Notes under the pieces: model-generated
The model's database searches: none
Told to the model about the DNA's origin: nothing
The model's input: the letters and a program-made list of their open reading frames with translations, nothing else
Translations under genes and position numbers: made by a program
In this document: piece by piece, positions 4,461 to 39,126 of the stretch
Layout: each line of letters opens with the position of its first letter
Numbering within the stretch: position 1 is the first letter of the stretch
Assembly (NCBI RefSeq): GCF_050320075.1
Contig: NZ_CP190018.1
Source: Escherichia coli
GTDB taxonomy: Bacteria > Pseudomonadota > Gammaproteobacteria > Enterobacterales > Enterobacteriaceae
DNA length: 64,000 nucleotides
Strand: one strand, 5' to 3'

Positions 4461-4646
4461 CATTAATTCAAATGTCGGCATAGCCAACCAATCATCTGGT
4501 AAGCATGTGTTTTCGACAGACTGCATTAACCGCTCATCACTTCGACATGTGAAAGTTTCTTTGTGACCGAGCGAGCCCTGTGAAGAATTAGGGCAATCCA
4601 TATCTTCACCTGTTTTTTTCACTAGAGCGTTATTAATCTCAATCAT
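4458..4646 (-). CDS. Hypothetical small Cys-containing protein (62 aa)
   Basis: ORF ends at the convergent hairpin; no recognisable family. Confidence 0.3.
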   Translation of the reverse strand: MIEINNALVKKTGEDMDCPNSSQGSLGHKETFTCRSDERLMQSVENTCLPDDWLAMPTFELM

Positions 4647-4871
4647 TGTGAGTTCCAGACCTCAGACTAATTAATTTCAACCCCACTATTGCGAGGCTAA
4701 ATCCTGGTATTTGTAATGACTGGCTCTTATCTCAACGCAGCCCCTTACCGCGCGCAAGATGCTCAATATCAAGCATCAGCAATGAGATGTTTAATCTGGA
4801 TTCACTCCAGAAGTGATCACCACCCTGTCTACAGAGCCAGATGTGAAGGATGATGAGTAAAATTATCGCTA

Positions 4872-5309
4872 TCATCGAAGGCATTGCGTCCTGATGTACT
4901 CCTGCAGGTAGTTAACCTGCGCGGTTATCCTGTCGATTCCACTTCGGAGACGGTAATAATTGAGTTCAGCATCTGCTGTAAGTCTTGGGCTTTCTCCATC
5001 GCCCATGCTGCTGGCTCCGGTCGTTGACTTTGCACAGGTGGCGGCGACTTGCAGGCGTTTACGACCAGCAGAAACATCAGCACGGAGACTTTCGATAGTC
5101 GCGTTAGCATCAGCAAGCTCCTTTGTGTATCTGGCGTCGAGTTCTGCTACATCATGTTGCCGCTTCTGCATATCAGCGATAATAGATGTGGCTTTATCGC
5201 GCTGTTCTTTATAGGTAATGGCGTTATCACGGTAATGATTAACAGCCCATGACAGGCAGACGATGATGCAGATAACCAGAGCGGAGATAATCGCGGTTAC
5301 TCTGCTCAT
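4872..5309 (-). CDS. Rz: Rz i-spanin (lysis)
   Basis: 145 aa with N-terminal TM segment; lambda Rz-like; overlaps the R stop. Confidence 0.9.
4925..5116 (-). CDS. Rz1: Rz1 o-spanin lipoprotein embedded in the +1 frame of Rz
   Basis: 63 aa ORF nested inside Rz; lipobox-like VVNAC followed by a Pro-rich stretch, as in lambda Rz1. Confidence 0.7.
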
Positions 5310-5782
5310 ACCTCAATCTCTCTGACCGTTCCGCCAGCCTCTTTGAATTTTGCAATCAGGCTGTCAGCCTTATGCTCGAACTGACCATAACCAGCCCCCG
5401 GCAGTGAAGCCCAGATATTGCTGCAACGGTCGATAGCCTGACGGATATCACCGCGATCAATCATCGGCAAAGCGCCACGCTCCTTAATCTGCTGCAGCGC
5501 AACAGCGTCCTGGCTTTTGGGAGAGAAGTCTTTCAGTCCAAGCTGCTTGCGGTAAGCATCCCACCAACGGGAAAGAAGCTGGTAACGTCCGGCTGCTGTT
5601 GATTTGAGTTTTGGGTTTAGCGTGACAAGTTTGCGAGGGTGATCGGAGTAATCAGTGAATAGCTCTCCTCCTACAATGACGTCATAACCATGATTTCTGG
5701 TTTTCTGACGTCCGTTATCAGTTCCCTCTGACCACGCCAGCATATCGAGGAACGCCTTACGTTGATTATTGATTTCCACCAT
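5306..5782 (-). CDS. R: Endolysin, lambda R-type lytic transglycosylase
   Basis: 158 aa, [26 protein letters not shown]..., near-identical to lambda R from memory. Confidence 0.95.
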
Positions 5783-34818: not shown

Positions 34819-35515
34819 CTAGCGCGTTCGCTGCGAAAGCACCTGCTGCTTATCCAGCTTTTGCACCAGCGGCTGCACCACTTTATCCCCATGCTGACCA
34901 AAGTATTGATACAGCGTATCGGACGCACTTTTGGTCAGCACCATAATCTCAATGCGTCGGTTGCCCGCGCTTTGCGGATTTTTCGCGTCCAGCAGCATCT
35001 GGTCCGCCATCGCGCTCACCTGCATCACTTTATCTTCCGGCATTCCGGCCTCTTCCAGCACCCGACGAGCCGAAAGCGCGCGATCGCCCGAAAGGTTCCA
35101 GTTGTTGTAGATATTGTTTTTGTAGGCCATCGCATCGGTATGCCCGGTAATAATAATTTTGTTATCGAGCGAGTCGAACACTGGCGCGAGCTCCACCAGC
35201 AAAGTTTTAAAGAACGGCATAATCTGTGCGCTGCCGCGTTCAAACATATTGCGGTTCTGGTCATCTTTAATCAGCACGCGCAGTCCCTGGGGAACAATCT
35301 CCATCTCCAGATTCGCTTCCATATGTGCATCACGGGCAATGGTGTTGATACTGGTCGCCAGCTCGCCAAGCTCAGTAGCGGATTTCTTCTTCAGCAGCGC
35401 CGTTTTCTCATTGACGTCACGCGCTTTTTTCTCCGTCTCTTCCGGCACCGCCACGGTGGCAGGTTTTGGCGGATGAGACAGGCTGATTTTATTTAACGGC
35501 GACAACCCGCCGCCA
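34819..35515 (-). pseudogene. lafU: lafU (mbhA) remnant, MotB-like, N-terminally truncated (Flag-2 remnant)
   Basis: OmpA-like peptidoglycan-binding C-terminal region; upstream part of the ORF is not protein-like and overlaps lfhA. Confidence 0.7.
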
Positions 35516-37288
35516 TTGAAAATCGACTGCCCGTGCAGCGCGGCGATAATGCTTTCACGCTCGGATTTACTGACGCTGTTGACAATCAACTTTATCGTCG
35601 TCACCAAAGGGGCCGAGCGTATTTCCGAGGTTTCTGCCCGCTTTACCCTGGACGCGATGCCCGGCAAACAGATGGCGATTGACGCCGATCTTAACGCCGG
35701 GTTGATCAACCAGGCGCAGGCGCAAACCCGGCGTAAAGATGTTGCCAGCGAGGCCGATTTCTACGGCGCAATGGACGGGGCATCGAAGTTTGTGCGCGGG
35801 GATGCCATCGCCGGGATGATGATTCTGGCGATCAACCTGATCGGCGGCGTCTGTATCGGGATCTTCAAATACAACCTGAGCGCCGATGCCGCCTTCCAGC
35901 AATATGTGCTGATGACCATCGGCGACGGCCTGGTGGCGCAGATCCCGTCCCTGCTGCTTTCCACCGCGGCGGCGATTATCGTCACCCGCGTCAGCGACAA
36001 CGGCGATATTGCCCATGACGTGCGTAACCAGTTGCTGGCAAGCCCGTCGGTGCTCTACACCGCCACCGGGATCATGTTTGTGCTGGCGGTTGTGCCGGGG
36101 ATGCCGCATCTGCCGTTTTTGCTGTTCAGCGCCCTGCTTGGTTTTACCGGCTGGCGGATGAGCAAACGCCCGCAGGCGGCGGAGGCGGAGGAGAAAAGCC
36201 TCGAAACGCTGACCCGCACCATCACCGAAACCAGCGAGCAACAGGTCAGTTGGGAGACTATTCCGCTGATCGAACCCATCAGTTTAAGCCTCGGTTACAA
36301 ACTGGTGGCGCTGGTCGATAAAGCGCAGGGTAACCCACTCACCCAGCGTATTCGCGGCGTGCGGCAAGTGATATCCGACGGCAACGGCGTGCTGCTGCCG
36401 GAGATCCGTATTCGGGAAAACTTCCGCCTCAAGCCCAGCCAGTACGCCATATTCATCAACGGCATTAAGGCCGATGAAGCGGATATTCCGGCGGATAAAC
36501 TGATGGCCCTGCCCTCCAGCGAAACCTACGGCGAGATTGACGGCGTGCTGGGGAACGACCCGGCGTACGGGATGCCGGTGACCTGGATCCAGCCCGCGCA
36601 GAAAGCGAAAGCGCTGAATATGGGGTATCAGGTGATCGACAGCGCCAGCGTGATCGCTACCCATGTGAACAAGATTGTGCGCAGCTATATTCCTGATTTG
36701 TTTAACTATGATGACATCACGCAGTTGCATAACCGTTTGTCGTCGATGGCACCGCGCCTGGCGGAAGATTTGAGCGCGGCGCTCAATTACAGCCAATTGC
36801 TGAAAGTGTACCGGGCGCTGCTGACCGAAGGCGTTTCCCTGCGCGATATTGTCACCATCGCCACCGTGCTGGTCGCCAGTAGCACAGTGACCAAAGATCA
36901 TATCCTGCTGGCGGCCGATGTGCGCCTGGCATTGCGGCGCAGCATTACCCATCCGTTCGTTCGCAAGCAGGAGCTGACGGTGTATACGCTGAATAATGAG
37001 CTGGAAAATCTGCTCACCAACGTGGTGAATCAGGCGCAACAGGGCGGGAAAGTGATGCTCGACAGCGTGCCGGTCGATCCGAATATGCTCAACCAGTTCC
37101 AGAGTACGATGCCGCAGGTAAAAGAGCAGATGAAAGCGGCGGGGAAAGACCCGGTGCTGCTGGTGCCGCCGCAGTTGCGTCCTTTGCTGGCGCGTTATGC
37201 AAGGTTGTTTGCGCCGGGGCTGCATGTGCTGTCGTATAACGAAGTGCCGGACGAGCTGGAGTTGAAGATTATGGGGGCGTTGAGTTGA
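35516..37288 (+). pseudogene. lfhA: lfhA remnant, FlhA-family export-gate protein lacking its N-terminus (Flag-2 remnant)
   Basis: FHIPEP-family sequence from about residue 45 of the ORF; garbled N-terminal 40 aa. Confidence 0.75.
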
Positions 37289-37371
37289 TTGAGGAATCTT
37301 TTCCATGCTTTGCAGCACCTGACACCATTAATTGACGTCACACTGCAAAGAGACTACGATGACACCATACA

Positions 37372-37671
37372 ATGACGTCATGGATTGATAGTATGATTAA
37401 GGTCAGCGCGCTAGGCTCTCGTCATAGAAAAACATTCGACGATGTAATGACGGAGCCGCCAAAATCTGGAATTAAATGGGATGATGTTGTTGCACTCATT
37501 AAAGCTGTGGGTGGAACAATAAAAAATAACAACGGCTCCAGACGAAAATTTCAGATTGGAACGACCAAATTCAGCACACATGAGCCACATCCAAAGAATG
37601 TGATGGATAAAGGCGCAGTAGCAGGTCTTAAGGAGTGGTTTGTTAACTGTGTAGGGGTAGATTATGAATAA
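37372..37671 (+). CDS. HicA/YcfA-family toxin-like protein (start uncertain)
   Basis: GSRRKFQIG...THEPHPKNVMDKGAVAGLKEW resembles the HicA G-S-H...PHPKKD core; followed by a HicB-like gene. Confidence 0.55.
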   Translation: MTSWIDSMIKVSALGSRHRKTFDDVMTEPPKSGIKWDDVVALIKAVGGTIKNNNGSRRKFQIGTTKFSTHEPHPKNVMDKGAVAGLKEWFVNCVGVDYE

Positions 37672-38020
37672 AGCATCGAACATTATCACAATTAAAGGTC
37701 AACCAGCCGCAGTGACATTTGAAGCCGATATCAACGCATTTCGCGGCAAGTTCCTCAATGTAAACGGTTATTGTGACTTTGTAGCCACAAGTATTGAGGC
37801 ATTATATCGTGAAGGCGAAAGCGCGCTGGATGAGTGGATGGCGGATTGTGAAGAGGACGGTATTGCCCCTTTTCGTGAAGAAGAAGAGCAAAAACGCCTG
37901 ACGCTTCGTGTTCCTCATCACATTGATTCGCGGCTGACCATCGTCGCCAGACAACATTCCATTTCAAAAAACCAGCTCATTGTTGATGTCTTAGAACGTG
38001 AGTTTTCAGCCCAGATGTAA
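37664..38020 (+). CDS. HicB-family antitoxin-like protein with C-terminal RHH-type region
   Basis: 118 aa; ATG after AGGGGTAG; overlaps the upstream stop; C-terminus RLTLRVPHHIDSRLTIVARQHSISKNQLIVDVLEREF. Confidence 0.55.
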   Translation: MNKASNIITIKGQPAAVTFEADINAFRGKFLNVNGYCDFVATSIEALYREGESALDEWMADCEEDGIAPFREEEEQKRLTLRVPHHIDSRLTIVARQHSISKNQLIVDVLEREFSAQM

Positions 38021-38076
38021 ACAGGTCGGATGCCGCGTGGCATCCGACCTTTTGCCAGTTCGTCAATATTACCCAT

Positions 38077-38835
38077 TTACAAAATCGTCTCTTCCGTCAA
38101 AATCCGGCGCGCGCCTAAAAAATGGTCCTGCCAGAAAGGTTCAGCTAACCGACTTACCCGTATGGTTTCCCCGGTGCGCGGCGACTCAATAAACTGTCCA
38201 TCGCCCAGATACACGCCCATATGGTCGGCAATCTCGCGGCTGTGGATATGAAAAAACAGCAAATCTCCCCGGCGCAGGTCGTTATTCGCCACAATGGTTG
38301 CCCGGCGATAGTGATACATCTCATTAGCCGTGCGTGGGAGCTTCGCCTCGAGGATCTTGTTGTAGGCATAAAAAACCAACCCGCTACAGTCGAAGCCTTG
38401 ATCGGGCCGCGTGCCGCCCCAGACGTAAGGCTTGCCAAGCTGCTGCTCCAGGCGGTGAATCGCCACTTCGGTGATGTTGTGTAGATGGTCGCTGCTTAAG
38501 AAATGGTTGTTCTCCGCCAGCGCCTGCCAGCGTCTGTCACTTGCCTTGAGCGGCGCAGGAAACCATTCTGGATGCTGTTTTATCTGTTCGCGGTTGTGCT
38601 GGCGCAGCGCCTTTCTGCTTTCGGCATTGCCTTCCACAATATAGCTGGCCTGTTTTTTCAGATGGGTTTGGTACTGTTTTAATAAACGCGCACGGTTTTG
38701 CATCCGCTGGCGGGCGGCGTAGCTGAAAGAGATATGTGATGTGGTGGCGCTGGCGAGTAAAGGGAGCAAAACGCATAACGAAAACACGCCTGGATGCAGA
38801 AATCTGCCGAGCAAGAACGAAGACATGAAGGACAT
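38077..38835 (-). CDS. yafL: NlpC/P60-family lipoprotein peptidase YafL
   Basis: Signal peptide; catalytic region DCSGLVFYAY. Confidence 0.85.
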   Translation of the reverse strand: MSFMSSFLLGRFLHPGVFSLCVLLPLLASATTSHISFSYAARQRMQNRARLLKQYQTHLKKQASYIVEGNAESRKALRQHNREQIKQHPEWFPAPLKASDRRWQALAENNHFLSSDHLHNITEVAIHRLEQQLGKPYVWGGTRPDQGFDCSGLVFYAYNKILEAKLPRTANEMYHYRRATIVANNDLRRGDLLFFHIHSREIADHMGVYLGDGQFIESPRTGETIRVSRLAEPFWQDHFLGARRILTEETIL

Positions 38836-39126
38836 AAACCGGCTGAATGAAGGTGAGAATTTTAAAAGACCAGAGGAGTAAACGGGATTATTAATTGCTT
38901 ATTTGCATATTACTATTGAGGTTTCATAATCTTAGGAAATAAATGATACATGCGCTTTTCGGACTATTGAAAACTGCCCCTGTGCTAAATTTGTAAACCC
39001 TGCGCCGACAGGCTTGCGTAAAACTCTTTTGGTGATAATGTGAGCCTTCCCAATCCAGACTATTCCGATTTGGGATCCATTTTGCCGTCCTGGCGTGTGT
39101 AACCGTTTTATCAAGGAATAAGCAGT

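Follow-up and report, generated by a model that had tools for sequence, protein, structure and literature searches.

The hicAB locus described here lies on the chromosome of Escherichia coli, within an analysed stretch of 64,000 nucleotides (the window), and consists of two overlapping genes with a predicted promoter and four predicted operator boxes in front of them and a probable terminator behind (Table 1). Positions 37200-38100 are 100% identical to many RefSeq genomes, and the PGAP names in RefSeq are 'HicA family toxin' (start 37393, 92 aa, WP_000598760.1) and 'HicB family antitoxin' (118 aa). An earlier reading of the DNA (the original prediction) had proposed a HicA/YcfA-like open reading frame (ORF) followed by an overlapping HicB-like ORF, and both ORFs are indeed present, with an overlap of 8 nt. 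Searched against the HicA and HicB profiles of Pfam, both proteins score above threshold. For HicA this is a marginal pass (PF07927, HicA_toxin; 30.2 bits at a cut-off of 27, E = 4.9e-7, residues 36-84 of a 99-aa form), and the HicB match (PF05534; 40.5 bits at a cut-off of 21) covers residues 60-110 only. Phage protein families give longer matches, with PHROG 8887 ('toxin') on residues 9-85 of HicA (2.4e-20), PHROG 9151 ('HicB-like antitoxin') on residues 6-114 of HicB (4e-13) and an Arc-like repressor PHROG on HicB residues 72-115.

Table 1 Features of the hicAB locus, in window coordinates.
Feature	Position	Strand	Description
Whole hicAB cassette	37284..38077		Segment without a K-12 counterpart
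Operator box 1 TGACACCA (predicted)	37320..37327	+	Fits TGRYRYCA; almost every homologous promoter has a box at -73/-72/-75 relative to the ATG
-35 hexamer TTGACG (predicted)	37332..37337	+	Promoter scan, 9/12 match together with the -10, 17-nt spacer; position and spacing conserved
Operator box 2 TGACGTCA (predicted)	37333..37340	+	Overlaps the -35 hexamer
-10 hexamer TACGAT (predicted)	37355..37360	+	TAGAAT, TACAAT or TATTAT at the same place in homologues
Operator box 3 TGACACCA (predicted)	37360..37367	+	Adjoins the -10; the inferred transcription start falls within it
Operator box 4 TGACGTCA (predicted)	37373..37380	+	In the 5' leader; takes in the spurious upstream ATG 37372
Shine-Dalgarno-like GGAT, weak	37382..37385	+	7 nt 5' of the hicA start; read from the sequence
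hicA	37393..37671	+	92 aa; toxin homologue with a dsRBD fold, in the 'long HicA' subfamily, which has an N-terminal helix, GSR for GSH and an HxPHP motif
Shine-Dalgarno AGGGG for hicB, strong	37653..37657	+	Inside the end of hicA
hicB	37664..38020	+	118 aa; partial RNase H-like HicB domain at the N-terminus (about residues 7-65), DNA-binding domain of the ribbon-helix-helix type (RHH; about 77-117) at the C-terminus
Probable intrinsic terminator	38023..38054	+	12-bp G+C-rich stem, GCGU loop, then UUUU; hairpin 38023-38050

The pair has the layout by which Class 4 hicAB operons are recognized, hicA followed by hicB and a C-terminal RHH in HicB. In the census of Gerdes 2024 (Table S1) the identical HicA (UIV62394.1) is listed as part of a Class 4 module, that is, one with an RHH-type HicB, and the Class 4 HicB given there differs by one residue from that of the window. 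The pair is therefore already catalogued and, given that it is also annotated, the novelty of the module is low. Both records support the interpretation made in the original prediction, that of a HicAB-like toxin-antitoxin pair. As an E. coli operon of this kind the locus is ordinary and annotated already; what sets it apart is one feature, a toxin from a subfamily without the usual catalytic histidine. Neither HicA nor HicB is matched by a relevant NCBIfam model or has a defence-system entry in PADLOC. No structured RNA or RNA antitoxin is indicated at the locus, as an Rfam scan of 37100-38300 returned nothing except a chance snoRNA-like match (E = 0.81). A literature search found no experimental work on this hicAB module or on its HicA subfamily, and what is gained here is mainly anatomical: the start codon, the promoter, the operator, the terminator and the boundaries of the insertion.

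The predicted folds agree with the assignment of both genes. The HicA model (pLDDT 91.6) consists of a helix followed by alpha-beta-beta-beta-alpha, and its best matches are solved HicA structures, at a Foldseek E-value of 0.44. In the HicB model (pLDDT 82), four strands and a long helix span residues 7-65, a partial RNase H-like fold that is predicted to neutralise HicA, and an RHH built from a short strand and helices 85-97 and 102-117 forms the C-terminus. The top Foldseek match of HicB is B. pseudomallei HicB (6g26_B, probability 1.0), and further matches (4p7d_A, 4p78_A, 2dsy and 6hpb_B among them) include Y. pestis HicB3, TTHA0281 and E. coli HicB. The C-terminus also matches the RHH of Arc, CopG and VapB; its last 40 residues match Arc and CopG in fold, and match the phage Arc-like family as well. 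An RHH-type C-terminus, as originally proposed for the HicB-like ORF, is thus backed by the predicted fold, by Foldseek and by the Arc-like PHROG matches. The presumed base-contacting strand, K77-R-L-T-L-R-V-P84, is specific to this HicB family. At the sequence level, the two proteins share only about 10-18% identity with their solved counterparts, a weak similarity that counts against reading the locus as a hicAB operon. Searching the solved structures by phmmer with HicA or HicB returned nothing meaningful, and the subfamily profile alone reached solved HicA chains (E = 0.005).

Upstream of hicA, the original prediction described two imperfect 20-bp direct repeats, GACACCATTAATTGACGTCA at 37321-37340 and GACACCATACAATGACGTCA at 37361-37380, each holding a palindrome. 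Extended by one base 5', the repeats are 21 nt long (TGACACCATTAATTGACGTCA, 37320-37340; TGACACCATACAATGACGTCA, 37360-37380), identical at 18 of 21 positions and spaced by 40 nt, and the palindrome TGACGTCA is found in both, at 37333 and 37373. When the 105-nt intergenic region between lfhA and hicA was shuffled, a repeat of 18/21 arose in 0 of 2000 trials, and two copies of the same 8-bp palindrome in 18 of 20000. The repeats are therefore real, but two direct repeats is not the best description of them, given that each resolves into a pair of 8-bp boxes, TGRYRYCA, lying 13 bp apart, with 40 bp between the pairs. It is only the variant TGACACCA, common to boxes 1 and 3, that gives the E. coli boxes the appearance of direct repeats. 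The paired arrangement TGRYRYCA-N5-TGRYRYCA occurs twice in the 64-kb window, both times at the hicA promoter, against 0 expected, and single TGRYRYCA boxes are not enriched there (25 found, 18.3 expected). The box TGACGTCA appears to resemble the 8-bp met box of MetJ, AGACGTCT. Arc, CopG and MetJ, RHH repressors whose sites are short boxes in tandem or in pairs, are stand-alone proteins, unlike the HicB of this operon, and the spacing of 13 bp within and 40 bp between pairs is a further difference from them. Transcription is predicted to start near 37366-37368. A separate 8-bp inverted repeat in the same region, CTTTGCAG (37308-15) and CTGCAAAG (37343-50), was considered as part of the operator and rejected; it is probably due to chance, since it carries uncompensated changes in a diverged E. 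coli allele (WAT) and is absent from other genera.

A search through one genome per species gave homologous loci in Photorhabdus, Morganella, Providencia and Proteus, and others were added by look-up (Salmonella colicin plasmids, Brenneria, one enterobacterial metagenome contig and the diverged E. coli allele). We compared 13 promoters, that of the window and 12 homologous ones, of which 11 are from six other genera and one is from the metagenome contig. Relative to the hicA ATG, the four boxes of the homologous promoters lie near -73, -60, -33 and -20. In all 13, a TTGAyr -35 begins one base 5' of box 2, and a TAnnnT -10 follows 16-18 nt after the -35 and ends on the first base of box 3, while the sequence around boxes and hexamers has diverged freely. 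The box variants, such as TGACGTCA, TGATATCA, TGACATCA, TGGTGTCA and TGACACCA, fit TGRYRYCA, a few of them with one mismatch. In the WAT allele, which is 97% identical overall, every upstream substitution falls outside the four boxes and both hexamers, and box 1 is unchanged. At a distant homologue on a Piscirickettsia plasmid, the upstream region reads TGGTGTCA-N4-TGACACCA with a third TGACACCA further upstream, and TGACACCA and its complement form an inverted pair.

Because the same boxes recur around the same promoter in Photorhabdus, Morganella, Providencia, Proteus, Salmonella and Brenneria, the four boxes are very probably the operator of HicB, and the conserved four-box layout strongly supports the earlier suggestion of an autoregulatory operator at the repeats. 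It is very improbable that the repeats are something other than HicB operators, whether a local duplication that is vestigial or due to chance, or sites at which a host regulator recognizes TGACGTCA-like palindromes. HicB binding is predicted by comparison, and boxes 1 and 3, which in E. coli are imperfect palindromes and count against the operator to that extent, depart from the palindrome in the same way, as a recent 21-bp duplication could explain. However, the layout travels with hicAB into unrelated contexts, genera and plasmids, the substitutions of the diverged E. coli allele spare the boxes, and single boxes show no enrichment elsewhere in the window. We also considered boxes 1 and 3 as decayed sites and rejected this, given that TGACACCA fits the family-wide TGRYRYCA and is present at the Piscirickettsia homologue, which marks it as a genuine box variant. 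The start of hicA bears on the same region. ATG 37372 does lie inside the second repeat, so that the repeat overlaps the start on the ORF track as originally noted, and if hicA began there the toxin would have 99 aa. This ATG is in frame and opens the longest ORF, and in one database cluster (P0001) the gene is called at 99 aa, but we regard a start at 37372 as scarcely credible. HicA homologues are nearly all 92 aa long, PGAP places the start at 37393, in Photorhabdus the frame of the equivalent upstream ATG meets a TGA before the real start, and ATG 37372, which falls within box 4, has no ribosome site and is about 5 nt away from where transcription is predicted to begin. On these comparisons the true start of hicA, which the original prediction had called unclear, is ATG 37393 and not 37372.

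Translation signals are kept as well. GGGAT, GGAAT or GGAT stands at the place of the weak hicA ribosome site in the homologues, and AGGGG or AGGAG is found 6 nt 5' of the hicB ATG in all nine enterobacterial loci compared; in the Piscirickettsia locus the hicB Shine-Dalgarno is GGAG and lies further upstream. The 8-nt overlap, ATGAWTAA, is kept in eight of the nine enterobacterial loci and also in the Piscirickettsia locus. With a weak site for hicA and a strong one for hicB, low translation of the toxin and high translation of the antitoxin are therefore expected.

We consider it likely that the locus is a self-contained type II hicAB operon, toxin first and with an RHH antitoxin, that represses itself through the four boxes. 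As is typical of type II toxin-antitoxin modules, it is a patchily distributed two-gene cassette with its own predicted promoter and terminator. The sigma-70 promoter (TTGACG-17-TACGAT) would give a bicistronic mRNA with a short leader, on which hicA would be translated from the weak site at ATG 37393 and hicB from the strong site across the 8-nt overlap, yielding more antitoxin than toxin. The N-terminal domain of HicB would bind and neutralise HicA, and dimers of its C-terminal RHH would bind the four TGRYRYCA boxes. These cover the -35, the -10 and start site, and the early leader, and bound HicB would thus shut off the operon. The RHH-type HicB of Y. pestis and B. pseudomallei represses the hicA promoter via palindromes at the -35 and -10 (PMC11594946), and if HicB acts on the boxes as Y. 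pestis HicB3 and B. pseudomallei HicB do at these positions, it would block RNA polymerase. One HicB tetramer may either cover a 13-bp pair or bridge the two pairs. Depletion of HicB or an excess of HicA would lift the repression, and free HicA would arrest growth, most probably by acting on RNA. We infer the binding of HicB to the boxes, the stoichiometry, and the toxicity of HicA and its chemistry. The transcript probably ends at the hairpin of 38023-38054, which folds at -27.1 kcal/mol (z = -5.3). The terminator scan reported no site, as the hairpin misses its rule of 5 T in 8 bases, and the presence of only four U counts against a self-contained operon. The terminator lies within the segment that is absent from K-12.

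The toxin belongs to a long HicA subfamily, for which a profile search over 1.8 billion representatives returned 737 relatives, 115 of them at E <= 1e-10. They range from Enterobacterales to Deinococcus and Piscirickettsia and also occur in phage protein families. Most match from about residue 7 onward, which makes the N-terminal helix a feature of the subfamily. Among 141 aligned members, P22, W29, G48, S49, H63, P65, H66 and P67 are near-invariant, and the subfamily has a conserved HxPHP motif. Position 50 is Arg in 120 of the 141 and His in 2; the window's HicA accordingly reads G48-S49-R50 where canonical proteins have G-S-H with the catalytic His. In the profile alignment, R50 falls on the catalytic residue, which is His24 in B. 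pseudomallei HicA and His28 in Y. pestis HicA3, H66 falls on the His of 'PHP' in these two proteins and H63 on a Thr. Judged by this alignment, the protein is a homologue of HicA but falls outside the canonical GSH type. In all HicA proteins tested, toxicity requires the His that opens strand beta-2, and the PHP histidine is dispensable in gonococcal HicA. This sizeable subfamily is without the histidine that every mutational study treats as essential and, with Arg50 in place of the catalytic His, RNase activity is not to be assumed. In the HicA model beta-2 comprises residues 50-55 and beta-3 residues 58-63, so residues 50 and 63 would pair across the hairpin, and His63, as the cross-strand neighbour of residue 50, and/or His66 may take over the catalytic role.

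Two further readings follow from this substitution. In one, the pair is disarmed or repurposed: HicA would be no growth-arresting RNase but inert or able merely to bind RNA, and the locus would serve only as a HicB repressor, autoregulated and aided by a co-factor. The position of Arg50 on His24 and His28, and the loss of toxicity on mutation of the catalytic His in every system tested, speak for it, and so does the apparent dispensability of hicA: damaged hicA copies exist elsewhere, and with hicB in 1479 and hicA in 1370 complete E. coli genomes, about 109 with hicB alone are implied. Sampled genomes of this class do have hicB and lack hicA. One orphan-hicB allele that we inspected carries an in-frame deletion fusing the first codons of hicA to hicB, and retains the -10 and boxes 3 and 4, with box 3 as TGACATCA. 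We nevertheless hold a disarmed pair to be unlikely. The loss is one-sided, with no sign of hicA without hicB in the counts or in the sampled E. coli genomes, and the damaged copies fit the same picture of toxin loss. Such loss, of the toxin and never of the antitoxin by itself, is what one would expect of a working toxin. Purifying selection on hicA is strong (two E. coli alleles have 10 differences, all synonymous and 0 non-synonymous), G48, S49, H63, P65, H66 and P67 are almost invariant across the subfamily, and the weak-toxin, strong-antitoxin translation signals are kept. Homologues moreover occur on colicin plasmids, next to further toxin-antitoxin pairs and among phage protein families, settings expected of functioning addiction or defence modules. 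Purifying selection, one-sided loss and the inspected orphan allele together suggest, indirectly, that the HicA toxin is live. The other reading, which we put forward tentatively and at somewhat less than even weight, is that the long HicA subfamily has moved its catalytic centre, with, as a smaller second point, a four-box HicB operator architecture undescribed for characterised systems. With Arg50 in place of His, a different site that cleaves or binds RNA, possibly with other targets, would be made up of His63, His66 and the extra N-terminal helix. If long HicA proteins are still toxic, the accepted catalytic scheme for HicA is incomplete.

The closest known systems are Y. pestis HicA3-HicB3 and B. 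pseudomallei HicAB, both Class 4. They share with the self-repressing operon proposed here the toxin-first order, a dsRBD-fold HicA and a HicB with a partial RNase H-like N-terminus and an RHH C-terminus, and their hicA promoters have palindromic operators at the -35 and -10, as is predicted here. In contrast to the HicA of these species, the protein of the window has 92 aa, an extra N-terminal helix, GSR for GSH and the conserved HxPHP. The genes overlap by 8 nt here, compared with a gap of 174 bp in Y. pestis (PMC11594946), and the operator has four 8-bp boxes in two pairs, compared with two 15-bp inverted repeats in Y. pestis and a single palindrome in B. pseudomallei. The four defined boxes provide a testable operator model for an RHH-type HicB. 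The HicAB system of E. coli K-12 (hicA/yncN - hicB/ydcQ) is from the same species and has the same toxin-first order, but it is a different locus, and K-12 is without the present module. K-12 HicB has a helix-turn-helix and its operon two promoters, one of them for the antitoxin only (PMC11594946), whereas the HicB here has an RHH and, inside hicA, the promoter scan reported nothing promoter-like on the + strand.

Homology with K-12 extends to 37283, where the lfhA remnant stops, and starts again at 38078, at the yafL stop. Between these points K-12 has rayT and REP elements (902 bp), and the window has the hicAB cassette (794 bp). The original prediction had placed dinJ-yafQ and neighbours in this slot of K-12-like genomes, which was mistaken, as in K-12 dinJ-yafQ lies beyond yafL, between yafL and dpaA. 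Across E. coli, RefSeq annotates the pair in about 1,370 of 5,426 complete genomes and the full cassette is found in 1369 of the 5426, so that about one E. coli genome in four has this accessory toxin-antitoxin module, whose annotation is routine. Homologues occur in other contexts, on colicin plasmids, next to relB/parE, on Piscirickettsia plasmids, in phage protein families and, with an RHH HicB, near McrB on the D. radiodurans megaplasmid; the hicAB module is mobile on an evolutionary scale.

A plasmid origin was considered and rejected, as three E. coli 'plasmid' records carry the same chromosomal neighbourhood; the one that we inspected is a 404-kb replicon with flhA, yafL and dinJ-yafQ aboard. 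The HicAB of the IncI2 mcr-1 plasmid appears not to be a member of the subfamily, given that only 5 Escherichia plasmid records matched. The strain of the window is without dinJ-yafQ and has 232 non-homologous nt (38755-38986) in their place. Overall, rayT is present at >=80% coverage in 3564 genomes, and hicAB and rayT, as alternative fillings of one chromosomal gap, mark the history of E. coli lineages.

The gap between the lfhA and yafL stop codons has two alternative contents, hicAB in the window and rayT with REP elements in K-12, and the breakpoints between the two coincide exactly with these stop codons. Across 5,426 complete E. coli genomes, rayT is present in 3,564 and the full hicAB cassette in 1,369. 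On the lfhA side, the Flag-2 remnant is the same as in K-12, and dinB-yafNOP lies further left of the lfhA/lafU remnant. On the other side, the window lacks dinJ-yafQ, in place of which it carries a segment that has no K-12 counterpart and also replaces approximately codons 1–24 of yafL, so that the YafL N-terminus is unlike that of K-12.

Coordinates of features at the hicAB locus and in compared loci
Feature	Position	Remark
Flag-2 remnant	window 34819-37288	
lfhA, flhA-like, N-terminally truncated, annotated pseudogene	within window 34819-37288	overlaps lafU on opposite strand
lfhA stop-yafL stop gap, hicAB	window 37284-38077	794 bp
lfhA stop-yafL stop gap, rayT + REP elements	K-12 (L019) 4462-5363	902 bp
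Inverted repeat, CTTTGCAG	window 37308-37315	8 bp
Inverted repeat, CTGCAAAG	window 37343-37350	8 bp
Putative terminator hairpin, GGTCGGATGCC GCGT GGCATCCGACC	window 38023-38050	single occurrence in window
Segment in place of dinJ-yafQ	window 38755-38986	232 nt
FDAARGOS_1281 orphan-hicB allele	L020 2916-3347	counterpart of window 37289-38020

The 404-kb E. coli TUM18781 replicon pMTY18781-1, typed as a plasmid, has the chromosomal gene run fadE-lpcA-yafJ-dpaA-yafQ-dinJ-yafL-hicBA together with intact Flag-2 flhA, flhB and fliPQR. The cassette is thus also found beside a complete Flag-2 end and with dinJ-yafQ.

A hicB-only state occurs in approximately 109 complete E. coli genomes (hicB in 1,479 versus hicA in 1,370). 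In the one such allele inspected, from E. coli FDAARGOS_1281, an in-frame deletion joins the initial hicA codons to hicB; the predicted -10 hexamer and putative HicB operator boxes 3 and 4 are retained, and boxes 1 and 2 are gone. Damage to hicA itself was seen elsewhere: in a metagenome contig that shares the window's lfhA/yafL context, the HxPHP motif is disrupted by a double frameshift (L030 3001-3282), E. coli HicA clusters P0021, P0028 and P0033 are truncated to 61–65 aa, and in Providencia vermicola (L015 3001-3201) hicA is shortened to 66 aa with hicB intact.

Boxes 1 and 2 are flanked on both sides by the inverted repeat, which is altered without compensation in the WAT allele, a diverged E. 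coli hicAB allele 97% identical overall, and is not present in the other genera compared; it is therefore probably due to chance. The putative terminator hairpin resembles the core of an E. coli REP element; in the WAT allele, its stem differs by two non-paired substitutions.

In Salmonella contigs (L022–L024), HicA is 64% identical to that of the window, and the hicAB homologue has a ParA-like/SprT-like pair on one side and a cluster of colicin DNase, immunity and lysis genes on the other; it probably serves as an addiction module of a colicin plasmid.
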